Below, piece after piece: positions 27,459 through 46,517 of a stretch of 64,000 nt of DNA. How positions within the stretch are numbered: position 1 is the first letter of the stretch; every line of letters starts with the position of its first letter. A program made the position numbers and the translations under genes. Below the pieces are notes generated by a model. That model worked only from the letters and a program-made list of their open reading frames with translations, did not search any database and had not been told where the DNA came from. This DNA comes from an uncultured Candidatus Saccharibacteria bacterium (lineage in GTDB: Bacteria; Patescibacteriota; Saccharimonadia; Saccharimonadales; CAYUUR01): the NCBI GenBank assembly GCA_964448075.1, contig CAYUUR010000001.1:247371-311370 (forward strand), in the 5' to 3' direction.

Positions 27459-28226
27459 TTAACGTAGTGTAAATAAATTGCGGGCGTTTGCGGTAGTTGC
27501 TGCTGCCAGTTGGCCGAGCGATTCCCCGCGTAAACTGCTCAAGAATTCCGCCGTCACACATACATGTTTAGGCTGGCAGATTGTACCACGAAACGGGGAT
27601 GGAGTCAAGAAGGGGGCGTCAGTTTCTAGCAGTAATCGGTTGAGTGGCACTGCCTTAGCTGCTGCCAGCTGATCGTGGTCTTTGGTAAACGTCATAATGC
27701 CGTTTAGTCCGACGTACAAATCTCGTCGCAAAATCTGCTGTAGTTCATCAGTCCCCGCCGAGAAGCTATGAATCACCCCCGGCAGCTTGAACTCGTCGTA
27801 GATCGGCCAAAAATCAGCAAAGGCATCACGTACATGGAAGATAACTGGTAGTTTTTGCGCCTGAGCCACAGTCAATTGGAACCGCAAGAGCTCAATCTGG
27901 TCGCTTTTTTCGGAATGATTATAGTAGTAGTCGAGGCCAATTTCGCCTATTGCCACCACCTTGGGTTGCGCGGCAAGATCACGGAACTGCTGCAAGGCAT
28001 GGTCGTCATTCACGTACTCCTTAGCCTCGTGCGGATGCAAACCAACACTGGCCCAGACACCTTCGTGACGCTCGGCAAACTCCACCCCCGCTTGGCTATC
28101 AACCAAGGTACAGCCAACGCATAGGAGCTGCGTTACTCCGTCTGCACGTGCTGCTGCAAGTACCTCCAGAGGGTCAAGAGCGTAATCGGCAAAATGAATA
28201 TGACAATGCGTATCAACAAACTGCAT
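27459..28226 (-). CDS. tatD: TatD family metal-dependent hydrolase/DNase
   Basis: 255 aa with MQFVDTHCHIHF, GEIGLDYYY, HVRDA, HSFSG and ETDAPFL. Confidence 0.9.
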   Translation of the reverse strand: MQFVDTHCHIHFADYALDPLEVLAAARADGVTQLLCVGCTLVDSQAGVEFAERHEGVWASVGLHPHEAKEYVNDDHALQQFRDLAAQPKVVAIGEIGLDYYYNHSEKSDQIELLRFQLTVAQAQKLPVIFHVRDAFADFWPIYDEFKLPGVIHSFSAGTDELQQILRRDLYVGLNGIMTFTKDHDQLAAAKAVPLNRLLLETDAPFLTPSPFRGTICQPKHVCVTAEFLSSLRGESLGQLAAATTANARNLFTLR

Positions 28227-28234
28227 ACCAATGA

Positions 28235-28819
28235 TTATACGCGGTACAAAGCATGCTCACACATGTATTGCAGAATCTCCGGTGCAATTAAGCCCTTTGG
28301 GAGGTCATCTCCTTTCGCCATTGCCTGGCGTATCATTGTTGATGAAATACCTTGAACTCCTGAAGGTGCTCTAATCTGCCGAATCCGCTCATTTTCGGCG
28401 GGCAATTCGGAACCATCACGAGCCACCACCAACATCCTTAGGTTTTCCTTGAGGTACTGACCGCGTTCCCAAGAGTCCATACTGCCGTAGGCATCAGCTC
28501 CCCATACAAACCAAAAGTTATTACCGCTGTACATTTCTTGGAGTGATGCAACGGTTCGCCACGTTTCAGTTGGTGCAGGTAGGCCAAATTCAAAGTCAGA
28601 CGGGATTACAGGTTCATCATTAAAGTATGTATTGATTAATAACTTAACCATTGCCATCCGTACTTGATCCGGTAGCATGCCTCTTTTATCAACTCTGCAA
28701 CGGGAGGGCATCACCCAAACTTCGTCAATCAAAGGATGGTCATTGCACGCCTCGATGATTGCTTGATGTGCGATTGTTGGCGGGTCAAATGTTCCACCAA
28801 ATACTGCGATTTCTGCCAT
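28235..28819 (-). CDS. nadD: Nicotinate/nicotinamide mononucleotide adenylyltransferase
   Basis: 194 aa with GGTFDPPTIAHQ (the nucleotidyltransferase (H/T)xGH motif) and a C-terminal ISSTMIR. Confidence 0.85.
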   Translation of the reverse strand: MAEIAVFGGTFDPPTIAHQAIIEACNDHPLIDEVWVMPSRCRVDKRGMLPDQVRMAMVKLLINTYFNDEPVIPSDFEFGLPAPTETWRTVASLQEMYSGNNFWFVWGADAYGSMDSWERGQYLKENLRMLVVARDGSELPAENERIRQIRAPSGVQGISSTMIRQAMAKGDDLPKGLIAPEILQYMCEHALYRV

Positions 28820-28833
28820 GATTACCCCTTTCG

Positions 28834-28860
28834 TATAAAGTGTACTATTGACACTTAGTA
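28834..28860. promoter_or_regulatory. Predicted NrtR operator 1 (TATAAAGTGT-actattg-ACACTTAGTA), overlaps nadE -35
   Basis: 27-bp imperfect palindrome with 8/10 arm symmetry. The TTGACA -35 of the nadE promoter (28848-53; -10 TATGCT at 28871-76) lies inside it. Confidence 0.55.
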
Positions 28861-28882
28861 CATGGCACTATATGCTGGTAGT

Positions 28883-28909
28883 TAGTTAATGTCAATAGCA
28901 CACTAAGTA
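28883..28909. promoter_or_regulatory. Predicted NrtR operator 2 (TAGTTAATGT-caatagc-ACACTAAGTA), overlaps nadD -35
   Basis: Same motif with 8/10 arm symmetry. The minus-strand TTGACA (28895-90) with -10 TATAGT (28872-67) forms the nadD promoter. The two -10 boxes overlap face to face. Confidence 0.55.
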
Positions 28910-28925
28910 CAGAAGGGAAGACCAT

Positions 28926-30857
28926 ATGACAGAACTACTCATGGAACCACAATTCGAAAAACCAACCGCTGACTACTTTCGCGTTATGACGGCGAGTCCA
29001 GAAGTTGCCGTTGCTGACCCAGCCGTTAACACCGCAACAATCCTTACCCACTATGCTGAAGCAAAAGTCGCCGAAGCTGAGCTACTAGCCCTGCCCGAAC
29101 TGTGCGTTACGGGGTACACCACCGCTGACATGTTCTTTAACAAGCATGTTCGTAACCGTACCGAGGAGGCACTAACCTGCCTTGCAGAAGCCACACTCGA
29201 TGGCCCAGCAATGGTCGTGGGCGCACCGCTCGTAAAAGATGGCCTGCTATACAACTGTGCAGTCATGCTTGCAAAGGGCGAGATTGCCGGCGTGGTGCCA
29301 AAAACCTTCCTCCCTAACTACAATGAGTTCTATGAAAAACGCTGGTTTACAAGTGGCCGAAACGTCAAGGACACGCATATCAAAATTGGCCAGAATTACG
29401 CGCCATTTGGGACTGATCTTCTCTTTGACGTCAACGGTACTAATGTAGGCGTAGAGGTCTGCGAAGACGCCTTTGCGCCAATCCCACCCAGTGCAGAGCT
29501 AGCCCTGGCAAAGGCGGAAGTTATCATTAACCCTTCTGCCAGCAACGAACTCATCGGCAAAGAAGACTTCCGTCGCCGCCTCATTACCGGTCACGCCGCA
29601 AACTTCGTTTGTGCCTATGTCTATACCTCTGCAGGTAAGGGCGAATCAAATGCTGACGTCGTCTATGGTGGTCACCAAATGGTGGCGGAGCTCGGCAAGA
29701 TGCTGGACGAAGTCACACCGTTTGCTACTGACACAACGATTGTCGATATCGACACGACCTATATCGAACACGACCGCCTCAAAAATAAGACCTACGCCGA
29801 CCAAGCCGCTGAGTTTCGGCAAAGCCACGCATACCGAACCATTAGTGTTGACGTACCAACACCAACTGACGATACGCTTAAGCGTACTATTTCTAACGAA
29901 GCCTTCAAACCACAAAACCAAGCCGAGCTGGATCGACGCTGTGAAACACTGTTTAACCTCATGGCGTACCCACTAGCACAAAGACTGCTCGACGGTGCGT
30001 CAGACGGCATTGTAATCGGACTGTCTGGCGGGCTCGATTCTACGCTAGCACTCCTGACAGCACAGTATGCCTGCCAGATAATGGGCAAGCCGAACAGCTT
30101 CATCCACACCATTACCATGCCTAGCGAAGCCAGTAGCGTACGCACCCAAAGCAACGCCAGCAAACTGGCCGAATCAATGGGCACCACACACCATATCATG
30201 CCGATTGCCGACCTTGCGCATGAAGCACTCGATACTATTGGACACGATACAGTAACAGAAGACATAACATACGAAAACACTCAGGCCCGTATGCGCACAT
30301 TGCTGCTCATGAACTACGCCAACATGGTACATGGCATGGTCGGGGGCACCGGCGATATGAGCGAGATTGCCCAAGGTTGGTGCACGTTTAATGGTGACCA
30401 CATGAGCATGTTTAACCCTAACGCCAGTGTTCCAAAAACCATGGTTCGTGACCTCGTAGCCTGGTATGCGGAGAATCGATGCACACCAGAATCTGCTGAG
30501 ATTCTGGCTGATATCATCGACACGCCTGTCTCTCCAGAACTTGTCGGCAAAGGCGACCTCAGCCAAGAAACTGAATCATTGATAGGGCCCTACAAGCTCC
30601 ATGACTTCTTCCTCACAGAAGAAATACGCCGCGGCAGCACCCCACAAAAGATTGGCTACCTGGCAACTCTGGCCTTTGATCGTGAGTTCAGTCAGGAAGA
30701 TATCGCCTACTGGCTCGATGCCTACCACAATCGCTTTACGAAGAATCAGTGGAAGCGCGAATCCGTGCCAAACGGCCCGAAGATTGGTACTGTCAGCCTG
30801 AGTCCGCGTGGCGATTGGCGCATGGCACCTAATACCAGCCCAACTTGGTTCAATTAG
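28926..30857 (+). CDS. nadE: Glutamine-dependent NAD+ synthetase (CN-hydrolase domain + NAD synthetase domain)
   Basis: 643 aa. The N-terminal nitrilase-like domain has LPEL and VEVCED. The C-terminal domain has the PP-loop GLSGGLDSTLALL. Confidence 0.95.
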   Translation: MTELLMEPQFEKPTADYFRVMTASPEVAVADPAVNTATILTHYAEAKVAEAELLALPELCVTGYTTADMFFNKHVRNRTEEALTCLAEATLDGPAMVVGAPLVKDGLLYNCAVMLAKGEIAGVVPKTFLPNYNEFYEKRWFTSGRNVKDTHIKIGQNYAPFGTDLLFDVNGTNVGVEVCEDAFAPIPPSAELALAKAEVIINPSASNELIGKEDFRRRLITGHAANFVCAYVYTSAGKGESNADVVYGGHQMVAELGKMLDEVTPFATDTTIVDIDTTYIEHDRLKNKTYADQAAEFRQSHAYRTISVDVPTPTDDTLKRTISNEAFKPQNQAELDRRCETLFNLMAYPLAQRLLDGASDGIVIGLSGGLDSTLALLTAQYACQIMGKPNSFIHTITMPSEASSVRTQSNASKLAESMGTTHHIMPIADLAHEALDTIGHDTVTEDITYENTQARMRTLLLMNYANMVHGMVGGTGDMSEIAQGWCTFNGDHMSMFNPNASVPKTMVRDLVAWYAENRCTPESAEILADIIDTPVSPELVGKGDLSQETESLIGPYKLHDFFLTEEIRRGSTPQKIGYLATLAFDREFSQEDIAYWLDAYHNRFTKNQWKRESVPNGPKIGTVSLSPRGDWRMAPNTSPTWFN

Positions 30858-30874
30858 CGGTATACTATTAAGTA

Positions 30875-31555
30875 ATGAAAAGATCCGACACCTATACACC
30901 ACCAATCCTGACCGTTGATAACGTCGTGTTGACTCTGGTTGACGGTGTCCTGTCGGTACTGCTGATTAAACGACGCAATGAACCTTTTAAAGATCATTGG
31001 GCTTTGCCTGGTGGCTACAATGCCGCTGGCGAAACAACTACCCAAGCCATGAGCCGTATTTTGCATGACAAAGCCGGCCTAAAAGCTAGTTCTCTACAGC
31101 TGGTTGAGCAACTCTACACATTTGACACCGTGGCTCGGGACCCCCGCGGTCATGCTGTGTCGGTGACCTATCTTGGACTTGGCAGAACGGTTACTCCTCA
31201 GCCCAGCAAATCCACCCAAGAACCGCAGTTCTTCCCGCTTAAACAACTGCCACCCCTCGCCTATGACCACGCCGATATCATTGCCTATGCACTAGAACGT
31301 TTGCGATCAAAACTCACCTACACCAACGCTATCTTTGCGCTGTTACCAGAGAAATTCACCCTCACCGAACTACAATCTGCCTACGAAGCTGTCTTAGGGA
31401 GGCCACTCGATAAACGTAACTTCCGCAAAAAATTCCTGAGCCTTGACCTGATCCACGAAACAAACGAAACCGTCCGTCACGGCGCACACCGGCCAGCCCG
31501 TTTGCATACTTTTAATAGTCAAAGGCTGGAGAGTTTATCCCGAAGCTTTGACTAG
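30875..31555 (+). CDS. nrtR: NrtR-type regulator (degenerate Nudix domain + C-terminal winged helix)
   Basis: 226 aa. The Nudix fold has a decayed Nudix box (GGYNAAGETTTQAMSRILHDKAGL, catalytic Glu residues missing). The C-terminal part (AYDHADIIAYALERLRSKLTYTNAIFALLPEKFTLTELQSAYEAVLGRPLDKRNFRKKF) is typical of the NrtR wHTH domain. Confidence 0.8.
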   Translation: MKRSDTYTPPILTVDNVVLTLVDGVLSVLLIKRRNEPFKDHWALPGGYNAAGETTTQAMSRILHDKAGLKASSLQLVEQLYTFDTVARDPRGHAVSVTYLGLGRTVTPQPSKSTQEPQFFPLKQLPPLAYDHADIIAYALERLRSKLTYTNAIFALLPEKFTLTELQSAYEAVLGRPLDKRNFRKKFLSLDLIHETNETVRHGAHRPARLHTFNSQRLESLSRSFD

Positions 31556-32406
31556 TTGCGTGTTTCTATGGTGTCATAGAACGTCTGGTCAAAAATCCGC
31601 GGAACCTGATGCACTGTGTCAAGCAGCTGCTGACCACTAAACCTGCGTTTTCCGGGCAGCTCAACCCATTCGCCTCCAAACGGTGAGAGTGATTCGTCCC
31701 ACGGGCAGACAATCTTACGCCAGCGCATGTTTGGCGCAATGTCTGTAGGATCTTCTGGGTTGGCGCGCGTATACATCAGTAGTGAGGCGTTATAAAGTCT
31801 CTGTGCTTTGTCGGCGTGTGCGGCTTCCCATTCTTCTGGCAACATCCCTTCAATCACGTAGCGAACCATCCACATGAATTCGCCGTGCGTTACAGCAATA
31901 ACCCGCTTGTCTGCTTGCTCGAGGTTCAGCGTGTTCCGCAGATTTTGAACCCGTAGAAGCACCCCACTGGTCAACGACTCACCCCCATCAGGCGTCCAGC
32001 GCAATCGTGAAACCTCACGCATTCGCTCAGTATGGGGGAAGTGCTTTTCTCGCTCACCAGGGTGCACCATGTTATATATACCCCAGTCGCGCTCAGCGAG
32101 TCGGTCGTCAATAACCCACTGACAGGCCAAGCCCCCGACGTATGCTGCTGTTTCGCGTGGGCGGATGTATGGAGAGACAAGATGCTCGTCAAAGTATTCT
32201 GCTGGATCGCCGTAGGCATTTACGAGATACCGGTTTACAGCCTCAGCTTGGGCAACGCCTTTTGGAGACAGCCGGTATTGCCAGTCATGAACCTTCATAA
32301 AATCTTCTGGTACGTCCATGGTTCTGCCATCTTCAAAGGTACGGCTTATAATATTCCACTCTGATTCACCATGCCGTACAAAAACCAATGTTTCTGGTGC
32401 TGCCAT
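31552..32406 (-). CDS. Histidine phosphatase family protein (phosphoglycerate mutase-like)
   Basis: 284 aa with the RHG motif LVFVRHGESEWN and a second His in VTHGEFM. Confidence 0.8.
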   Translation of the reverse strand: MAAPETLVFVRHGESEWNIISRTFEDGRTMDVPEDFMKVHDWQYRLSPKGVAQAEAVNRYLVNAYGDPAEYFDEHLVSPYIRPRETAAYVGGLACQWVIDDRLAERDWGIYNMVHPGEREKHFPHTERMREVSRLRWTPDGGESLTSGVLLRVQNLRNTLNLEQADKRVIAVTHGEFMWMVRYVIEGMLPEEWEAAHADKAQRLYNASLLMYTRANPEDPTDIAPNMRWRKIVCPWDESLSPFGGEWVELPGKRRFSGQQLLDTVHQVPRIFDQTFYDTIETRN

Positions 32407-32408
32407 GG

Positions 32409-33479
32409 CTATGTTCCTTCTTTGAGTGCAACTTGCGTTAAAGCAGTAGAAACTTCACGCAAGCGATCGCCAGCAAAGATATGTTCCTCGTCAGCAGGGC
32501 GCGGTACATCCCCCCACAAACAGACAGCCATACTGCCCACGATACTGGCAATGCTGTCAGTATCGCCACCAAGCTCAACCGCACGATAGACACATTCTGG
32601 GTAATGAGGTTCACGCAAGAACGACCCGTACGCCATCATCAGTGTTTCTGGCGCAAAAAAGCCTCCGCCTTTTTCGCCACTGACACTGTCAAGAATAGTT
32701 GCGCGATCAAGCTCCGCCGGTTCTCCAAGGTTCAAGCTATCTCTTAATCTTCTTAACCATTCCGAGGTTGCTGTGGCATTTGGGAGATATCCTTCAAATG
32801 CGTCGGCTAGGTAGGTTGCGTCATAGTAGAATCCTAGCAGATATTTCAATGCATCTGGGTCGTTCGGATCAATACTCATAAGCTGCGTCAGCATGACACG
32901 ATGTATCTGACTACTCACCACCGCATCATCAGAATCGTGTGTCATACGGGTAAATTGCTCAACCTGCCGGAACGCAGCATCCGGGTCAGTATCACGTGCA
33001 TACTGATAATAGACCAACGGTGCCAGCTTCATAAGCACTCCGTTACCTGCCCCGCCAGCTTCACCAGATTCTGTTGGGTGCATGCCCTCTTGAAGCCGCT
33101 CAACACTGCGCATGGTTGATCTGCCGTAGCCATTTCGGCGGGATTCCGTCACGATTGGCGGCACCAGCTCAGCTAATTCATCTGAACCTCGAACATGCTC
33201 AATAGCCTGGATATGTGCCAGAGCTTGGTCTTCAAGATCAAAACCGCCATAGCGTATCAAACTCAGTACAGAAGCAAGTGACAAGTGCGTATCATCACTC
33301 CATACACCACGAGCATCTTTGAGTTCCGCAGGTACATCGAGGAAAGGATTACTCGTCAGAGGAGGGAGTTCAGTCACGCTACCTTCGGTTTGATGTGGCT
33401 TGGTCTCGTAAGGTAAGCCTGCCGCGTCTCCGTAAGCAATTGCACCCAGTAAATTTTCTCCTACTGCTTGTATTTTCAT
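32409..33479 (-). CDS. ADP-ribosylglycohydrolase family protein
   Basis: The track ORF runs to 33554. I prefer the ATG at 33479, preceded by AAAGGAGGTCGT. GAIAYGDAAGLPYE and GGDTDSIASIVG are the two metal-binding motifs of the ARH/DraG family. Confidence 0.85.
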   Translation of the reverse strand: MKIQAVGENLLGAIAYGDAAGLPYETKPHQTEGSVTELPPLTSNPFLDVPAELKDARGVWSDDTHLSLASVLSLIRYGGFDLEDQALAHIQAIEHVRGSDELAELVPPIVTESRRNGYGRSTMRSVERLQEGMHPTESGEAGGAGNGVLMKLAPLVYYQYARDTDPDAAFRQVEQFTRMTHDSDDAVVSSQIHRVMLTQLMSIDPNDPDALKYLLGFYYDATYLADAFEGYLPNATATSEWLRRLRDSLNLGEPAELDRATILDSVSGEKGGGFFAPETLMMAYGSFLREPHYPECVYRAVELGGDTDSIASIVGSMAVCLWGDVPRPADEEHIFAGDRLREVSTALTQVALKEGT

Positions 33480-33533
33480 ACGACCTCCTTTTTTTGTATA
33501 CCAATCAAAGTTCTGCTCGAAGCATATCATATA

Positions 33534-33560
33534 TAAAAAGTGTTGACAATACACTAACTA
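33534..33560. promoter_or_regulatory. Predicted NrtR operator 3 (TAAAAAGTGT-tgacaat-ACACTAACTA), overlaps pncA and ARH -35 boxes
   Basis: Same 27-bp motif. The plus-strand TTGACA (33543-48) with -10 TAAGCT (33566-71) serves pncA. The minus-strand TTGTCA (33549-44) with -10 TATGCT (33526-21) serves the ARH operon. Confidence 0.5.
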
Positions 33561-33580
33561 ACGCGTAAGCTACTTGTAAC

Positions 33581-33607
33581 TACTTAGTGTAGTAAACACA
33601 ATAACTA
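33581..33607. promoter_or_regulatory. Predicted NrtR operator 4 (TACTTAGTGT-agtaaac-ACAATAACTA), between pncA promoter and SD
   Basis: Same motif with 8/10 arm symmetry. It ends 16 nt upstream of the pncA ATG. Confidence 0.5.
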
Positions 33608-33623
33608 GTTAAGGAGGCCAATT

Positions 33624-34316
33624 ATGGAAAACCAAATAGCACTCGGCATCATCGATGCACAACGCGGCTTTATGCCGGCACTAGAAGGCGAAAGGCTCGG
33701 AGTTCCAGGCTTTGGTGAACTGCCAGTTACTGGTGGCGAGCTTATCGTCCCTAACCTCAACAATCTCACCCACGCTTTTCGTAGCCACATGGCGCCGATA
33801 GCCACCACACAAGACTGGCACCCAGAGGAAACCGCACACTTTGCAACCGAACCAAACTTTGTAAATACCTGGCCAAAGCATTGTCGTGCAGACACCCCTG
33901 GCGCCGAACTACACCCTGAACTGTATGTCGCACATATCAATTCCCTACTGCCCCACTTCAAAAAAGGCATGGAGGCAGCCGTAACCCCAGATGACGACAC
34001 CAGCTACACCGGCGTACTCGCCTACGACCTTAAGACCAAAGAGACCTTCCCTGAGTGGCTCGAGGCTCACAAGGTAACCACTGTCGTCTTAGGCGGTCTA
34101 GCGCTGGGTGACGGCAAAGAGAACCCACTCTGCGTCGACTCTACTGCTATCGACCTACGTCGCATGGGTTACGAAGTCGTGGTCACTACCGACGCTGTAG
34201 AAGCAGTCATGCCAGAAAACCGCGAACTCTGTTTTAAGAATCTCGGAGAAATCGGTGTAAAGCTGATGACTACAAATCAAGTACTAGCAGAAGTAGCTAA
34301 AGTTTACGGAGACTAA
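33624..34316 (+). CDS. pncA: Nicotinamidase/pyrazinamidase (isochorismatase family)
   Basis: 230 aa with GIIDAQRGFMP and a catalytic Cys context (NPLCVDSTAIDL). A strong SD (TAAGGAGG) is present. Confidence 0.85.
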   Translation: MENQIALGIIDAQRGFMPALEGERLGVPGFGELPVTGGELIVPNLNNLTHAFRSHMAPIATTQDWHPEETAHFATEPNFVNTWPKHCRADTPGAELHPELYVAHINSLLPHFKKGMEAAVTPDDDTSYTGVLAYDLKTKETFPEWLEAHKVTTVVLGGLALGDGKENPLCVDSTAIDLRRMGYEVVVTTDAVEAVMPENRELCFKNLGEIGVKLMTTNQVLAEVAKVYGD

Positions 34317-34318
34317 CT

Positions 34319-35575
34319 ATGAACCAATCACCTGTTCCATACGGACCATTACGCGAAGAGACCATGCTGACGGCTGGGCTTGACTACTACAAACCCACCA
34401 TGAGTCAGCAAGCCTACAACTTGCACCCAGAAGCAGAAGTCACCTTCACCTTCAAAAACCGCGGCCAAGAACGCTTGCTTGACTACATTGACGCAACAGA
34501 ACTACAGGCACGGTTTGACCGCATCACAGACCAAGGTTTCAGCGAATATGAACGTGATTACCTTGGTAGCCTATCTGACAGTAATGGTGAGCCAGTCTTT
34601 TCTGCCGAATACCTGACCTATCTTAAAACAGCAGAACTACCACGAGTTACCATCGGCGTTGAAGATGATGACTTAGCGTTTGAAACAACTGGACGATGGG
34701 ATATGGTGACGTTTTGGGAAACGATAGTGATGAGTCAGGTCAACGAAGCCTACTTTGAGGGCTTGGTGCAAAAAGAAGGTTTAGATCTTATGGAGATATA
34801 CGACGAAGGCCAGCGACGACTGGACGAAAAGATCGCTACCCTACAGGCCAACCCAGGCATCAAGTTTGCCGACTTTGGCACACGACGACACTTCAGCTTA
34901 CGCTGGCAAGATCACGTTGTAAACCAACTGCTAACCCGCTGCCCAGACAACATCATCGGCACCAGCAATGTTGCCCTTGCACAAAAGTACGGCGTCAAAC
35001 CAATCGGTACTTTTGCTCACGAAATGCCTATGACCTACGCCGGAATGGCAGAGGCCTTAGGGCAAGACGTCCGCGGTTCACACAACCAGATGTTAACTGA
35101 TTGGTACGAAACCTACGGCGATGACCTATCGATCGCCTTGACCGACACCTTTGGCAGTGACTTTTTCTTCAGCGACTTCACGCCAGAACAAGCAGAAGCA
35201 TGGCGTGGCCTACGACATGATTCTGGTGACCCAACCGAGTTTGGCGAGAAGGCAATCGCCTTCTACGAAGCCAACGGCATCGACCCAGCAAGCAAAACCA
35301 TCGTGTTTAGTGACGGGCTCGACATAGACCGCATTGTTGAATTGTACGAATACTTCAACGGAAAAGTGAATGTCGTGTTCGGCTGGGGAACAACCTTAAC
35401 CAATGATCTCGGACCGAAAGCGTTGAATATCGTCATGAAGGCAACGCATGTACGCTTACCTGACGGAAAGGAGGCCGACCAAGTGAAACTCAGCGACAAC
35501 CCAGGCAAATATACTGGACCGGAAGATACAATTGCCGACTATAAGCAAATATTCGCAGTACCGGTCCCTGCTTAA
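34319..35575 (+). CDS. pncB: Nicotinate phosphoribosyltransferase
   Basis: 418 aa with DFGTRRH, GTFAHEMPM, RHDSGDP and FSDGLD. Confidence 0.9.
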   Translation: MNQSPVPYGPLREETMLTAGLDYYKPTMSQQAYNLHPEAEVTFTFKNRGQERLLDYIDATELQARFDRITDQGFSEYERDYLGSLSDSNGEPVFSAEYLTYLKTAELPRVTIGVEDDDLAFETTGRWDMVTFWETIVMSQVNEAYFEGLVQKEGLDLMEIYDEGQRRLDEKIATLQANPGIKFADFGTRRHFSLRWQDHVVNQLLTRCPDNIIGTSNVALAQKYGVKPIGTFAHEMPMTYAGMAEALGQDVRGSHNQMLTDWYETYGDDLSIALTDTFGSDFFFSDFTPEQAEAWRGLRHDSGDPTEFGEKAIAFYEANGIDPASKTIVFSDGLDIDRIVELYEYFNGKVNVVFGWGTTLTNDLGPKALNIVMKATHVRLPDGKEADQVKLSDNPGKYTGPEDTIADYKQIFAVPVPA

Positions 35576-35589
35576 GCAAGGAGACCGTC

Positions 35590-36294
35590 ATGAACGACTT
35601 ACTCAATTTACTAAACGTTAACAACACATTCTTCACCATTTTTGGCTACGACATGAGTTATGTAGAGTTCTTTGGAACCTTACTCAACCTTGCCTGCGTC
35701 TACTTGGTGGCAAAGAAAAACATCTGGAACTGGCCAATTGGCATTGTTGGTGTAGCCGTCTTTGCTGCATTGTTCTACCAGCTCAACCTCTATGCCGACC
35801 TCATGGAACAAGGTTTCTACTTTGTAACCGGAATCATCGGCTGGATTGCGTGGACACGAGCCAAGAAACCTCAAGACAAAACAGAATCTATAGAAGTTAC
35901 ACGCAACACATTCACAGTAAACGCAGCCTGGTTGATTGGCATCGCCATCTTCACTGGCCTCGGTGCTTGGGCAATGGCCCGCGTGCACGTGTGGTTACCC
36001 GCACTGTTCCCAGAGCCTGCCGCGCTCCCAATGCTTGACGTACTAACCACCATCATGAGCTTTGCAGCTCAGATCATGCTCATCCAGAAACGGCTCGAAA
36101 ACTGGATACTCTGGATAATAGTGGACGTCATCGCGGTCGGACTGTACTGGTACAAAGGCGTGGCGCTGGTGGCAGCACTGTACGCTGTGTTCCTCGTCAT
36201 CGCCACTATGGGCTTCTTTACATGGCTTAACACATATAGGAGGGAACGTCATGAAACGCGGACTGGTAGTCGGGAAGTTCTACCCACCACATAA
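35590..36294 (+). CDS. pnuC: Nicotinamide riboside transporter PnuC
   Basis: 234 aa, polytopic. It has the NIWNWPIGIVG motif and repeated W-containing helices typical of PnuC. Confidence 0.85.
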   Translation: MNDLLNLLNVNNTFFTIFGYDMSYVEFFGTLLNLACVYLVAKKNIWNWPIGIVGVAVFAALFYQLNLYADLMEQGFYFVTGIIGWIAWTRAKKPQDKTESIEVTRNTFTVNAAWLIGIAIFTGLGAWAMARVHVWLPALFPEPAALPMLDVLTTIMSFAAQIMLIQKRLENWILWIIVDVIAVGLYWYKGVALVAALYAVFLVIATMGFFTWLNTYRRERHETRTGSREVLPTT

Positions 36295-37222
36295 CGGACA
36301 CCACTTCTTAATCGACACAGCGCTGGAGCATGCCGAACATGTAGACGTACTGGTTTGCGACAACCCTGCATACACTATAGACGCCCAGCTCCGTGCCTCA
36401 TGGCTCAGACGTCGACATCCACATGCTCACGTCAGGGTCATACGTGACATCGGCAAAGACAATGATTCACAAGCCTGGGCAGAACACACAATAGACTTCT
36501 TGGGATATGCGCCAGATGTAGTGTTCAGCTCAGAAGACTATGGTCTCACCTATGCGGGGTTCATGGGTGCGGCGCACCACATGGTTGATCGGCAACGTGT
36601 CACTATTCCAATAGCAGCCACAAAGATAAGGTCAAATGTTTTCGCCTGCTGGGAATACTTGCATCCAATTGTTCGACAATACCTGTCTGCCCGCGTTTGC
36701 ATACTCGGCGCCGAGTCAACCGGTACAACTACGCTCAGCCGTGCATTAGCCCAGAAGTACCACACGGCTTGGGTGCCTGAGTACGGACGATACTATACGG
36801 AGGCGCTCAATGACCGTGATCACCAGTGGCTTAGTCAAGAATTTACGCACATCGCACAGATACAGCAGGCAATGGAAAACCAGTTAGCTGGCCATTCCAG
36901 CGGACTGCTTATCTGCGACACCAACGCCTTCGCGACCCGCCTCTGGCATAAGCGCTACATGGACGACTGGTCAGATGAAGTAGACGAAATCGCTCAAGCC
37001 GACCGCCCGGATCTGTACATTCTGACAGGCGACGAAATTCCCTTTGTGCAAGACGGCATTCGGGACGGAGAAGCGGTGCGCCACGATATGCACAAAGACT
37101 TCATTGAACAATTAAACGCCAGAGAAACACCCTATATCGAACTGCGCGGCGACTTGCAAACACGAATCAGTGCCGCCACTAAAGCTATTGACCACTTACT
37201 AACACGAAAGGCTCACATATGA
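36251..37222 (+). CDS. nadR: NMN adenylyltransferase / ribosylnicotinamide kinase NadR (no HTH domain)
   Basis: 323 aa. The NMNAT part has GKFYPPHNGHHFLID. The kinase P-loop is ILGAESTGTTTL. An SD (AGGAGGG) precedes the ATG, which lies inside the pnuC 3' end. Confidence 0.85.
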   Translation: MKRGLVVGKFYPPHNGHHFLIDTALEHAEHVDVLVCDNPAYTIDAQLRASWLRRRHPHAHVRVIRDIGKDNDSQAWAEHTIDFLGYAPDVVFSSEDYGLTYAGFMGAAHHMVDRQRVTIPIAATKIRSNVFACWEYLHPIVRQYLSARVCILGAESTGTTTLSRALAQKYHTAWVPEYGRYYTEALNDRDHQWLSQEFTHIAQIQQAMENQLAGHSSGLLICDTNAFATRLWHKRYMDDWSDEVDEIAQADRPDLYILTGDEIPFVQDGIRDGEAVRHDMHKDFIEQLNARETPYIELRGDLQTRISAATKAIDHLLTRKAHI

Positions 37223-38001
37223 TCAACGTTGAACAAGCACCCGAACAGACAAACAATTTCAAGACACAAAGTCTACACGCCTTACGAGAACAACTTGTAT
37301 CACGACCGTACCCTGGCTATCCCGACCGAAAAGATCGCCTGTATGCCCAAGGGGGCTCGATCAAGCCCGTCGCCTTGCCGCTTGGCCCTTGGGAGACGTC
37401 TGAAGGCACAGTACCGTCCATCTCTGAGCAAGATTGCTTTATCGATGCTGGACTGGAAACTGACGCCTATGGTCGCCCGCTCCACCCGTGGTTCTGGCAA
37501 ATGTATGAAGACCCTGACGTCGGAGTCGTAACTGGCAAAGGCTTTTACTGGAACTGGGGGCCAAACTACACTGCTGACGCTGTGGTTGTTCGACAGAACA
37601 ATGACACACCGGAAATTCTGCTCATACAACGCGGCGATACGGGCGCTTGGGCGCTACCCGGTGGCTTTATTGACCTTGAACAAGCAGAACCGCCAGAAGT
37701 TGCCGCTCGGCGTGAAGCAGAAGAAGAAACTGGCATCCGCATCCCGCCCGAAGCATCTGCAGGAAAGCTCGTCTATCAAGGTCCGTTGGCCGACGTTCGC
37801 GTTACGGCACATGCTTGGCCACATACCTACGCCTACTTGTATGATGTCAGCGGACTTGACCTAAGCACGCCATGCGGAGATGATGATGCAGTGGACGCAC
37901 GTTGGCTGCCCATTGACGCCTGCGACCAAACGCTCCACGGATCACATGGTTTAATCATTCAACATGCCCTGGAGCACTACTATGGAACACATGCCAGCTA
38001 A
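37219..38001 (+). CDS. Nudix hydrolase, NUDT9-like (probable ADP-ribose pyrophosphatase)
   Basis: 260 aa. The intact Nudix box GGFIDLEQAEPPEVAARREAEEETGI is preceded by an N-terminal extension, as in the NUDT9-type ADPR pyrophosphatases. Confidence 0.7.
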   Translation: MINVEQAPEQTNNFKTQSLHALREQLVSRPYPGYPDRKDRLYAQGGSIKPVALPLGPWETSEGTVPSISEQDCFIDAGLETDAYGRPLHPWFWQMYEDPDVGVVTGKGFYWNWGPNYTADAVVVRQNNDTPEILLIQRGDTGAWALPGGFIDLEQAEPPEVAARREAEEETGIRIPPEASAGKLVYQGPLADVRVTAHAWPHTYAYLYDVSGLDLSTPCGDDDAVDARWLPIDACDQTLHGSHGLIIQHALEHYYGTHAS

Positions 38002-38941
38002 GCAAATACCATCAGCCGAGGCACTGGCTAGTGCCGAAAACAAAACGCCAATCAACGCCGGTCACATGATGTACGACAAAAGCATTGTCACGACTGCCGA
38101 CGCTAACTGGTTTGTTAAAAGTAACAATGGGCAACTTTTTAGCGATGAAACAGAAGCCGCACGAACATGGGAATACCTCATTAAGGAAGCTGCCGTCTAT
38201 GACATTGTGCAGCGTAATGGTTATCTGTTTGTGCCGGCGGCTTATTTTCATGAGGAGTCACTCATTATGCCTGCGCACCTCCCCGAGGACGGCTGGCACT
38301 GGGAAGCGCCTGCTGAGTCAGTAGACGCATATGCCCAGGACGTCTTATCGGCACTTGAATCACTTGAGGAAACAAGTGGTTTGGACGAACTTGTCTTGTT
38401 TGAAAGAGAGAACACTATTGACCTTTTCTTGAACAAAGGCTGGCAAGCAATTAATACAGAAACTATTCCTGAGATTATGGCTAAAATCGAACTGCTAAGG
38501 CCAGCATTTCACCAGCATGTCAGTGATGGCGTGCGTGATGTCTTGGATATGCTTGCGACTGGTAAGCATATTGAGTCCGCCTGCCATTTGCAAAGGAACT
38601 ACCTGACCCGTCCTGACTTTGTTTTTGCTCACCTGGACGCCCGTCAGACAAACATCACGTGGCACCCAGATCACGGTGCTCGCTTGGTTGACTGGAGCTG
38701 GGCTTCGGCTGCACCACGCAGAGCCGACCGCACGATGTTCCTAATAGACTTACATAAAAGTGACCATGACGTAACGGCATACATGGCTGAGCACTTTGAC
38801 CCTGATTACGCCTTACTCATCATTGGGTATTGGTTAGCTCGGAGTATTTTGCCGAGTGCGCCTGGTGACGAAACAGTGCGTTTTCACCAGTTGGCATCAG
38901 CAGTTTCTGCAGCGGATTTACTGCTTCGTAACCGGAGCTGA
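37964..38941 (+). CDS. Kinase-fold protein (aminoglycoside/choline kinase-like phosphotransferase), function unknown
   Basis: 325 aa. The Brenner-type catalytic motif is FAHLDARQTNITW, followed by RLVDWSWA (a DxD-like Mg site). The start is uncertain, with alternative ATGs at 37982 and 37991. Confidence 0.5.
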   Translation: MPWSTTMEHMPAKQIPSAEALASAENKTPINAGHMMYDKSIVTTADANWFVKSNNGQLFSDETEAARTWEYLIKEAAVYDIVQRNGYLFVPAAYFHEESLIMPAHLPEDGWHWEAPAESVDAYAQDVLSALESLEETSGLDELVLFERENTIDLFLNKGWQAINTETIPEIMAKIELLRPAFHQHVSDGVRDVLDMLATGKHIESACHLQRNYLTRPDFVFAHLDARQTNITWHPDHGARLVDWSWASAAPRRADRTMFLIDLHKSDHDVTAYMAEHFDPDYALLIIGYWLARSILPSAPGDETVRFHQLASAVSAADLLLRNRS

Positions 38942-40375
38942 TTCCAAACGAGGGAATAATGTACCCTCTATTGGCCGAACGACCCCATCCTCAAAAACGT
39001 AGCGGATCTTGGCGGCGGTATCTGGCAAAAACGGCTCGAGTAACTCAGCAATCTCGAGCAGGCAGCTAGCTTGGTATGCTAATACCTCACGCAAATGATC
39101 GGCATCATTTGACTTGGCGATGGCCCATGGCTTCTGTTCTTCAATATATTGGTTGAGGCCGCGAACTTGATCCCAGACTTCGTCGAGTGCTCGGTCAAAC
39201 TTGCAGTCTTCAAGCGCAGCACGGTATTTGGCTGTGTCATGCTCAGCCGCTGGGATATCGCCAACAATTCCATTCAAGTACTTGCTAATCATCGCCGTGG
39301 TTCGCTGTACAGCGTTGCCGAGTTCGTTTGCCAGTTCGTTATTGTAGGCCTGTTCTAAGCGGTCCCAGCTGAAGTCACCGTCATCGTATGATGGAATGTG
39401 CCGCAAAAAGTAGTATCGGAACGTATCGACATTGTACTTGTCGATAATTTCTTGTGGCGCGATTGAATTACCAAGTGACTTGCTCATCTTTTTGCCATCG
39501 ACGCTAATAAAACCGTGGACGTACAGCGTCTCAGGCAAAGGCTGACCAAGCGCCAGTAGCATGCCCGGCCATATGGCCGCATGAAAGCGCAAAATGTCTT
39601 TGCCGATAACCTGCACATTTGCTGGCCAAAACTTCTTAAAATCGTCGTGCTCAGGATAACCAAGAACGGTAATATAGTTCATGAGCGCCTCAAACCACAC
39701 ATACATGACCTGCGTGTCGTCACCAGGTACAGCAATCCCCCAGGCAATCTTTTCTTTTGGACGTGAAATACTAATATCATCCAACCCGTCATTAATGACA
39801 TTCATAATCTCGTGCTTCTTGGTCTCGGGGATTATTCTAAACTTTCCAGATTCAATTGCTTGCTTAATCTTAGGTGCATAGGCTGAAAGTTTAAAAAAGT
39901 AGTTTTCTTCTTGAAGTTTTTCGTACGGCCTGTTGTGGTGCGGGCAAGTGCCGTTGTTTTGTTTAGCAACAGCCTCGGTTACAAAAGCCTCGCAACCCGT
40001 ACAGTACAATCCTTCGTAGCTCTTTTTATAGATATCTTTGGCGATTGCAGACCAAATAAGCTGAGCGCGTTGTTCATGCCCTTGGTCAGTCGTACGTATA
40101 AATCGGTCGTTACTGATGTTAAGCGCCTTTTGCAGGTCACGAAATGACTGACTCACTTGATCAGTGAAGGCCTTAGGATCGAGCTTAAGCTCAGCTGCCT
40201 TCTCGGCAATCTTTCCGCCATGCTCATCTGTACCAGTGCTAAATATAACTGGTTTTCCGTCTTTGCGCGCAGCACGTGCCAAAACGTCAGCATACAAAAA
40301 CTCTAAAGCATGCCCCAGGTGTGGGACATCATTTACGTAAGGGATTGAGGTAGTGACAAAATAATTCATACTCAT
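38918..40375 (-). CDS. metG: Methionine--tRNA ligase (short form)
   Basis: 485 aa with the HIGH region PYVNDVPHLGHALE, a zinc knuckle CTGCEAF...CPHH and KMSKSLGN. Confidence 0.95.
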   Translation of the reverse strand: MSMNYFVTTSIPYVNDVPHLGHALEFLYADVLARAARKDGKPVIFSTGTDEHGGKIAEKAAELKLDPKAFTDQVSQSFRDLQKALNISNDRFIRTTDQGHEQRAQLIWSAIAKDIYKKSYEGLYCTGCEAFVTEAVAKQNNGTCPHHNRPYEKLQEENYFFKLSAYAPKIKQAIESGKFRIIPETKKHEIMNVINDGLDDISISRPKEKIAWGIAVPGDDTQVMYVWFEALMNYITVLGYPEHDDFKKFWPANVQVIGKDILRFHAAIWPGMLLALGQPLPETLYVHGFISVDGKKMSKSLGNSIAPQEIIDKYNVDTFRYYFLRHIPSYDDGDFSWDRLEQAYNNELANELGNAVQRTTAMISKYLNGIVGDIPAAEHDTAKYRAALEDCKFDRALDEVWDQVRGLNQYIEEQKPWAIAKSNDADHLREVLAYQASCLLEIAELLEPFLPDTAAKIRYVFEDGVVRPIEGTLFPRLESAPVTKQ

Positions 40376-46106: not shown

Positions 46107-46137
46107 AAAAAAACTCGAACTGAGTTCAAGTTTTTTT
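46107..46137. terminator. Bidirectional intrinsic terminator (A7-hairpin-T7) shared by ccdA and ssrA
   Basis: The sequence is AAAAAAACTCGAACTGAGTTCAAGTTTTTTT. The stem is CTCGAAC/GTTCAAG with one wobble. It abuts the tmRNA 3' CCA end. Confidence 0.6.
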
Positions 46138-46517
46138 GGTGGAGCTGCCGGAGAACCGCCCTCCGGGTCCGCAAGTTTATCTTTGTTAGTCGTCTACAGG
46201 CATAGTCTGTTTAGTGTCTTAGGCGCATGTCTGAAAGCAGACAAAATAACACACGCAGCAGCTCGTAAATCTTAAGAACAATTACGAGTCATCACTGTTC
46301 AGCAACCCTGGAAAATAGCGCATCGTATAGCTACCAAGGTATCGCTATAGATACGGCTGTCTAACTAATTAGGCAGCGAGTGCTAGACGATTGCCGAGAA
46401 CTCGGTCAACCGCGTCGCTAATAGAAGTTTTTGCATCTATTGTGATTGTCTATACGCTGACAAGCGACCTGCTGATCTAACTGATAAAGTCCTACGTCGA
46501 GCTTAAAATTCAGCCCC
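46137..46517 (-). ncRNA. ssrA: tmRNA (SsrA)
   Basis: On the minus strand the 5' end is GGGGCTGAATTTTAAGCTCGACGTAGG and the 3' end is GCGGACCCGGAGGGCGGTTCTCCGGCAGCTCCACCA. The acceptor stem GGGGCUG/CAGCUCC and a terminal CCA are present. An internal tag frame (46434-46369) follows AAUAGAU. It reads GCA AAA ACT ... CTA GCA CTC GCT GCC TAA, giving AKTSISDAVDRVLGNRLALAA*. Confidence 0.9.

Follow-up and report, generated by a model that had tools for sequence, protein, structure and literature searches.

We consider a 64,000-nucleotide stretch of DNA from an uncultured Candidatus Saccharibacteria bacterium (contig CAYUUR010000001.1; the whole stretch is referred to as the window), which carries a cluster of genes for nicotinamide adenine dinucleotide (NAD) metabolism together with nrtR, the gene for a 226-residue regulator of the NrtR family. 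Four 27-bp palindromes (O1 to O4) in the two divergent intergenic regions of this cluster are very probably the operators of the cluster-encoded NrtR repressor; we infer the binding, the repression and the ADP-ribose effector from sequence. The comparative evidence is decisive for the operator reading, and the NAD cluster is very likely a new but ordinary case of an NrtR system, though a well-supported one.

The four 27-mers, read off the window DNA, have the coordinates and sequences given in a preliminary description of this DNA (Table 1). The arms of O1, O2, O3 and O4 are symmetric at 8, 8, 7 and 8 out of 10 positions, in agreement with the 7 to 8 described earlier. T1, A2, A6, T8, G9 and T10 are common to all eight half-sites and G7 is found in six of them, while T8-G9-T10 and A18-C19-A20 are invariant in the window sites, which therefore contain the GT-N7-AC core of NrtR operators. 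As defined by Rodionov et al. 2008, these operators are 21-bp palindromes that overlap promoters or sit between the promoter and the start codon, in some cases in tandem, and in vitro the protein is released from them by ADP-ribose (PMC2330246). The placement in the window is the same: the sites overlap the promoters, or fall between promoter and start codon, of NAD genes near nrtR, and all four are confined to 250 bp, or 0.4% of the window. O1 spans the -35 element of nadE plus about +1 to +27 of the nadD leader, and O2 spans the nadD -35 element plus about +1 to +27 of the nadE leader; orthologues of both are present in an alignment (A3) of the relatives' upstream regions. The spacer of O3 contains the pncA -35 element TTGACA, and its opposite strand provides the -35 element TTGTCA of the ADP-ribosylglycohydrolase gene. 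O4 begins a few bases past the predicted pncA start site and stops before the Shine-Dalgarno sequence (AAGGAGG, 33611-33617), so that it lies between the pncA -10 element and this sequence, where the preliminary description had put it.

A symmetric 27-bp matrix gives the four sites 26.6 to 30.3 bits, and everything else in the 64 kb at most 11.3. With a matrix built from the sites of either intergenic region, those of the other come out at the top of the window (17.0 to 21.6 bits). In this held-out test the shuffle maxima average about 13, and the lower held-out score is reached by 3 of 200 and 13 of 200 shuffles of the whole 64 kb. The signal resides in the full-length arms and in the placement of the sites.

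The predicted promoters are consistent with this placement. The -35 hexamers TTGACA or TTGTCA with a 17-nt spacer, which had been proposed for all four transcription units, are called by a consensus scanner for nadE, nadD and the glycohydrolase; the pncA -10 element, previously considered reasonable, is weak by consensus. Among 62 non-identical TTGACA-containing operators from other genomes and metagenomes, 41 have TAnnnT at exactly 17 nt, and each of the other spacings from 13 to 21 nt accounts for just 0 to 4 instances. This fixed distance supports the operator-embedded TTGACA as a true -35 element, and the pncA TAAGCT conforms to this TAnnnT, which is conserved in alignment A2 as well. The nadD and nadE -10 boxes do overlap at 28867-28876, although 'overlapping divergent promoters' is a better term for the arrangement than boxes placed face to face. 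The predicted transcription start sites lie near 28860, 28883, 33514 and 33579. Since the two promoters interpenetrate, with each -35 element sitting in the 5' leader of the other gene, O1 and O2 are each the -35 operator of one gene and the leader operator of the other. Across instances the second operator follows the first by 34 to 51 bp with a mode of 48, and this regular pair might reflect cooperative binding of two dimers.

Among genomes, the regulator has its nearest relatives (55-71% identity) in Candidatus Saccharibacteria metagenome-assembled genomes (MAGs) with the same synteny, which makes that phylum the probable origin of the window. In 14 Saccharibacteria loci (196.7 kb), a matrix trained on the window only finds 38 sites of at least 20 bits, against 0 to 1 in shuffles. 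These sites are intergenic and adjoin nadD, nadE, pncA-pncB, pnuC-nadR, nrtR, a Sir2 gene (L009) and small open reading frames (ORFs) beside nrtR. The motif is thus unevenly distributed in the DNA examined, window and relatives alike, and a comparable palindrome does stand upstream of NAD genes and nrtR in the orthologous clusters; the opposite outcomes, which the preliminary description had named as refuting, are not what is seen. The aligned orthologous upstream regions share an invariant AGTGTTGAC..ACA, followed by a -10 element and then by AGTGT..AC, while the surrounding DNA has diverged; in the O3 type, AGTGTTGAC..ACA is unchanged across 12 aligned regions. Selection of the relatives' sites by the core only gives 43 against 5.8 expected, and these sites carry 0.86 to 1.04 bits at positions 1, 2, 4 and 5 of the 27-mer and about zero outside it. 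The information at the outer positions, and its absence beyond them, shows that the 27-bp extent claimed earlier is real.

The same distribution is seen in metagenomes. The inner 19-mer of O3 with one base changed (TAGTGTTGACAATACACTA) has 68 exact occurrences on 67 metagenomic contigs. The gene that follows is pncA in 22 cases, nrtR in 12, pnuC in 9, and nadE and pncB in one each, and 6 more map to pnuC-nadR, which brings the matches followed by an NAD gene or nrtR to at least 51 out of 68. Several further matches lie beside nrtR, and about 5 have no visible link to NAD.

Could the conservation be that of promoter elements only (a -35 element with an UP-like flank), or of a site for another transcription factor? 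Three of the four sites do contain TTGACA, which is strongly conserved. A promoter, however, has no need of two-fold arm symmetry, and the O4-type second operators keep AGTGT-N7-ACA without any -35 element. Where nrtR stands alone in relatives (L010, L012, L013, L014, L016), sites are found immediately upstream of it. In other phyla the same core occurs upstream of nrtR or NAD genes together with the recognition helix DKRNFRK (26 of 63 loci), which makes the motif a property of the subfamily and not a Saccharibacteria invention, and the core equals that of the operator crystallised with the homolog BtAraR. We consider this alternative highly unlikely.

We give even less credence to the palindromes acting as RNA hairpins, in the manner of an attenuator or riboswitch. 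Three of the four sites (O1, O2 and O4) do fall within predicted 5' leaders, each with 10-nt arms and a 7-nt loop. The O3-type sites are upstream of the start site, however, and folding is weak, at -1.3 to -4.0 kcal/mol per hairpin. Of the deviations in the arms of 47 sites, 97 disrupt complementarity and only 5 compensate, which indicates that the half-sites are held to a consensus and not to pairing with the partner arm; the ACAAT variant conserved in the second operator likewise retains its mismatch. Rfam has no family in 28000-37500 at the gathering threshold or even at E<=1. With the weak folding and the lack of compensation, the hairpin is rejected.

We return to the operator reading and to the protein that would bind. 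The preliminary description had placed an NrtR-family regulator with a Nudix domain and a winged helix at 30875..31555, and the profile searches agree: a Nudix-fold domain at the N-terminus (PF00293, 1.7e-13, residues 19-137) is followed by an NrtR-type winged helix (PF21906, 92.8 bits with a cut-off of 27, residues 154-213). The PDB matches are near full-length, the best being BtAraR of Bacteroides thetaiotaomicron (BT0354; PDB accession codes: 5BS6, 5DD4, 5DDG, 5DEQ; E=1.2e-33 for 5bs6), followed by SoNrtR of Shewanella oneidensis (SO1979; PDB accession codes: 3GZ5, 3GZ6, 3GZ8; E=1.2e-28 for 3gz5), which has the same Nudix-like plus winged-helix architecture and a degenerate box. The Nudix box of the window protein reads GX5EX7-RILHDKAGL in place of REUxEExGU, with I, D and K for the three glutamates, so the catalytic glutamates are lost as had been noted. 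A degenerate signature is typical of the NrtR family but not universal in it.

BtAraR was crystallised on GCAAAAGTGTTACTTTTACACCCATGC, of which the dimer covers 25 bp; Lys179 contacts G7, Asn181 contacts A18 and Lys184 contacts T10, Arg180 intercalates at C19/A20, and the wing residues Lys204 and Arg205 touch the outer operator positions (PMC4666351). Five of these six base-contacting residues are identical in the window protein (K180, R181, N182, K185 and R206), and Lys204 is replaced by H205. The core of the BtAraR operator, AGTGT-N7-ACAC, is that of the window sites and occupies the same register within a 27-bp duplex, and tandem sites occur. This match of contact residues, taken with the invariant core positions, accounts for the core as well as for the length of the footprint. 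By contrast, the recognition helix of SoNrtR is QGKSFRR, against DKRNFRK in the window protein, and its operator sequence differs accordingly, although tandem operators lie on the NAD-gene promoter there as here. Together with the family assignment, the GT-N7-AC core and the conserved sites at NAD genes and nrtR, these features favor the NrtR-like protein as the binder, as first suggested. By analogy with the BtAraR and SoNrtR structures and from the two-fold symmetry of the sites, each palindrome would be occupied by one homodimer.

According to PMC4666351, ADP-ribose is held in SoNrtR by Arg41, Asn43, Lys76 and Arg98. The window protein has R33, N35, K66 and R91 at these positions, where the BtAraR residues are R, F, L and G, and the pattern supports an ADP-ribose-type ligand. 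BtAraR senses L-arabinose; its cleft is closed by Arg34, Phe36, Leu67 and Gly89 at the SoNrtR ADP-ribose positions (PMC4666351) and is also filled by Tyr5, whereas the predicted pocket of the window protein is open as in SoNrtR. BtAraR controls arabinose genes and the window regulator adjoins NAD genes. Membership in the AraR branch of Bacteroidetes is rejected, with N35, K66 and R91 in the pocket, NAD genes as all the neighbors, and only the DNA-reading residues shared.

The model can then be put together as follows. Each winged-helix domain of the NrtR dimer would read one TAsTwAGTGT half-site. In each divergent region, one operator houses a predicted -35 element in its 7-bp spacer, and a dimer bound there would exclude the RNA polymerase from the promoter. 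The second operator, about 48 bp away, would cover the start site and the early leader and so block initiation or escape. O3 would carry the -35 elements of pncA and of the glycohydrolase operon alike, and the four sites together would govern four transcription units, with functions in NAD salvage, uptake and the final steps of synthesis, in the release and degradation of ADP-ribose, and in the production of NrtR itself. By analogy with the characterised NrtR proteins, NAD consumption would raise ADP-ribose, which would bind the catalytically dead Nudix domain, and the ADP-ribose-bound repressor would then leave the DNA and allow the cluster to be expressed. The glycohydrolase operon would feed this signal, while the Nudix hydrolase encoded late in the pncA operon would drain it. 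Operators on the -35 element and on the start site point to repression that is relieved by ADP-ribose.

Several observations weigh against this picture. Matches to the 12-base core TAGTGT-N7-ACACTA are not enriched in the window, with 27 against 24 expected at up to 3 mismatches, and with 4 against 2.33 expected at up to 2 mismatches, a count that 23 of 100 shuffles reach and that is not significant; the full-length, held-out and cross-genome tests were used instead for this reason. The scan of this genome covers the 64-kb window, so that any specificity of the regulon is seen at the scale of that stretch. The pncA promoter was missed by the consensus scanner and its -10 element TAAGCT fits the consensus at 3 of 6 positions. 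The best NCBIfam match of the regulator, the equivalog NF050029 (ADP-ribose-responsive repressor), scores 146.1 bits, far under its cut-off of 400, which indicates a member of the family and not an ortholog of the seed group of the model. The pocket residues touch phosphates and ribose common to NAD and to other ADP-ribose-containing nucleotides and do not single out ADP-ribose. Finally, NdnR, an NrtR-family member of Corynebacterium, responds to NAD (cited in PMC4666351).

The last two points lead to the alternative that the sites are NrtR operators but that the effector is NAD acting as a co-repressor (as for NdnR), O-acetyl-ADP-ribose, phospho-ADP-ribose or nicotinic acid adenine dinucleotide (NaAD), which we regard as unlikely. 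The regulon of one relative includes a Sir2 gene, and the product of the Sir2 reaction is O-acetyl-ADP-ribose. NaAD, NADH, NADP and phospho-ADP-ribose at 100 uM also release SoNrtR in vitro (PMC2330246). On the other hand, the NAD-regulon members studied in Shewanella, Synechocystis and Mycobacterium smegmatis respond to ADP-ribose, and the SoNrtR-DNA complex is undisturbed by NAD in electrophoretic mobility shift assays. A signalling role for ADP-ribose also agrees with the presence in the regulon of a glycohydrolase that would release it and of an apparently active ADP-ribose-type Nudix hydrolase.

The family, the motif core, the placement of the sites and the effector logic of this NrtR system are already published; the system has been known since 2008. 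The predicted regulons of Rodionov et al. 2008 (for example Clostridium acetobutylicum pncAB and nadDE; Cyanobacteria, Chloroflexi, Pirellula) have the same functions, namely nicotinamide salvage and the universal nadD/nadE steps, with GT-N7-AC palindromes and promoter-overlapping sites. Saccharibacteria or Patescibacteria are not among the groups covered there, and the conservation here extends over 27 bp as opposed to 21, usually with one operator on the -35 element and one about 48 bp downstream. The predicted regulon of SoNrtR is a single operon, prs-nadV, as compared to four units here. MsNrtR of M. smegmatis (MSMEG_3198) is likewise a catalytically inactive auto-repressor of NAD genes that is released by ADP-ribose and has an N7-spaced palindrome, but its operator (GTTTTCGA-N7-TCGAAAAC) differs from the window sites and it controls the de novo genes nadABC, which are absent from the window cluster. 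The enterobacterial NadR and NiaR also repress NAD genes, with unrelated DNA-binding domains and operators.

No paper that links NrtR with Saccharibacteria or Patescibacteria was found in the literature searched. In these bacteria the genomes are tiny and regulators scarce, and hardly any regulon has been defined experimentally; the cluster provides a concrete and cheaply testable pair of transcription factor and operator for Patescibacteria. It suggests active regulation, in at least some lineages, of how nicotinamide and nicotinamide riboside are scavenged, both presumably from the host. It is also a clean case of modularity in the family, with a BtAraR-like DNA-reading head joined to a different effector pocket, while the understanding of how NrtR works is unchanged.

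A wider regulon appears in the relatives. In L009 (15366-16185), a gene for a Sir2-family NAD-dependent deacetylase has two sites upstream (24.2 and 26.1 bits), and an ADP-ribosylglycohydrolase gene adjoins it. The NAD cluster of the window (within 27459-40375) lies entirely between tatD and the convergent metG; the same interval contains only an autoregulated nrtR and two small ORFs in L004 (7241-9600), L013 (2092-5541) and L014 (5406-8843). These ORFs encode 73-88 residues and then 58-90 residues with a conserved RWVIFRALR, and are preceded by one operator in L013 and by a pair in L004 and L014. On five metagenome contigs (L089, L099, L118, L127, L143), a strong operator pair is followed by a gene for a DUF7736 protein (about 155-170 residues; PF24875, 1.1e-22), which adjoins nrtR wherever mapped and whose product matches the phage family phrog_15963 (7e-16). 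In PHROGs, DUF7736 matches only phage families with no known function, and the small ORFs match nothing. With tblastn, Sir2, DUF7736, the small ORFs and a PP2C-like protein have no match in the window.

Operators that also stand before Sir2, the ADP-ribosylglycohydrolase-phosphatase pair, the DUF7736 protein and the small-ORF pairs, and an autoregulated nrtR that persists between tatD and metG in genomes without the NAD island, raise the idea that NrtR of Saccharibacteria is a general sensor of NAD consumption beyond the regulation of NAD enzymes. We hold this to be rather improbable. If true, it would link ADP-ribose signalling in these reduced epibionts to host dependence or to a depletion of NAD induced by phages.

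Outside the Saccharibacteria, two sites upstream of nrtR (L030, L033, L059, L062, L069, L078, L079) are usually 22-24 bp apart from start to start, a spacing of adjacent dimers as for BtAraR, and the modal 48 bp of the Saccharibacteria is about twice this distance. Two MAGs labelled Candidatus Woesearchaeota (L023 at 7960, L026 at 7981) have an NrtR homolog with 44-46% identity and a core site 75-93 bp upstream, which could be a true archaeal NrtR, a horizontal transfer or mis-binning. Contigs labelled Chloroflexota or Bacteriovoracaceae (L007, L011, L015) have an NrtR 52-66% identical to that of the window and the Saccharibacteria-like order nadE-nrtR-pncA-pncB, which suggests mis-binning or transfer.

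Table 1. Operators, predicted promoters and genes of the NAD cluster, in window coordinates.
Feature	Position	Strand	Sequence, elements or match	Score or remark
Operator O1	28834-28860		TATAAAGTGT-actattg-ACACTTAGTA	27.9 bits; held-out score 17.6
Operator O2	28883-28909		TAGTTAATGT-caatagc-ACACTAAGTA	29.3 bits; held-out score 20.1
Operator O3	33534-33560		TAAAAAGTGT-tgacaat-ACACTAACTA	26.6 bits
Operator O4	33581-33607		TACTTAGTGT-agtaaac-ACAATAACTA	30.3 bits
Predicted nadE promoter	28848-28876	+	TTGACA 28848-53, 17 nt, TATGCT 28871-76	10/12 consensus
Predicted nadD promoter	28867-28895	-	TTGACA 28895-90, 17 nt, TATAGT 28872-67	11/12 consensus
Predicted ADP-ribosylglycohydrolase promoter	33521-33549	-	TTGTCA 33549-44, 17 nt, TATGCT 33526-21	9/12 consensus; TG precedes -10
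Predicted pncA promoter	33543-33571	+	TTGACA 33543-48, 17 nt, TAAGCT 33566-71	
tatD	27459-28226	-		downstream of nadD, same strand
nadD, nicotinate-nucleotide adenylyltransferase	28235-28819	-	Pfam, NCBIfam	
nadE, glutamine-dependent NAD synthetase	28926-30857	+	NF002730	689.9 bits
nrtR, 226 residues	30875-31555	+	PF21906, PF00293	1.5e-26, 1.7e-13; second gene of nadE-nrtR unit
Histidine-phosphatase-family gene	31552-32406	-	PF00300	1.7e-22
ADP-ribosylglycohydrolase	32409-33479	-	PF03747	3.5e-48
pncA	33624-34316	+	Pfam, NCBIfam	
pncB	34319-35575	+	Pfam, NCBIfam	
pnuC	35590-36294	+	Pfam, NCBIfam	
nadR-like nicotinamide mononucleotide adenylyltransferase/kinase without helix-turn-helix (HTH)	36251-37222	+	NF005988	profile positions 65-409 of 411
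Second Nudix protein, 260 residues	37219-38001	+	REAEEETGI	intact catalytic box
ORF, 325 residues	37964-38941	+		last of pncA operon
metG	38918-40375	-		convergent

The genes in Table 1 were assigned by Pfam and NCBIfam profile searches, in agreement with the public gene calls on this DNA. The genes of the pncA operon (33624-38941, plus strand) are tightly packed or overlapping. Its nadR-like gene has no N-terminal HTH and is thus an enzyme and not a regulator. The second Nudix protein most resembles the Nudix half of NadM-type enzymes and, judged by its catalytic box, is probably an active ADP-ribose pyrophosphatase able to degrade the presumed effector of NrtR. The last ORF of the operon has no match in Pfam, NCBIfam or PHROGs. 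Elsewhere in the window, Rfam finds a full-length transfer-messenger RNA (tmRNA) at 46137-46517 on the minus strand (68.5 bits), while ARAGORN finds neither a tmRNA nor any tRNA across the 64 kb. On the minus strand of the cluster, the histidine-phosphatase gene and the ADP-ribosylglycohydrolase gene are 2 bp apart and are predicted to be transcribed from the O3 promoter. The former converges with nrtR with a 4-bp overlap, and the sole terminator-like hairpin for this minus-strand operon (31483-31469) falls within the 3' end of nrtR.

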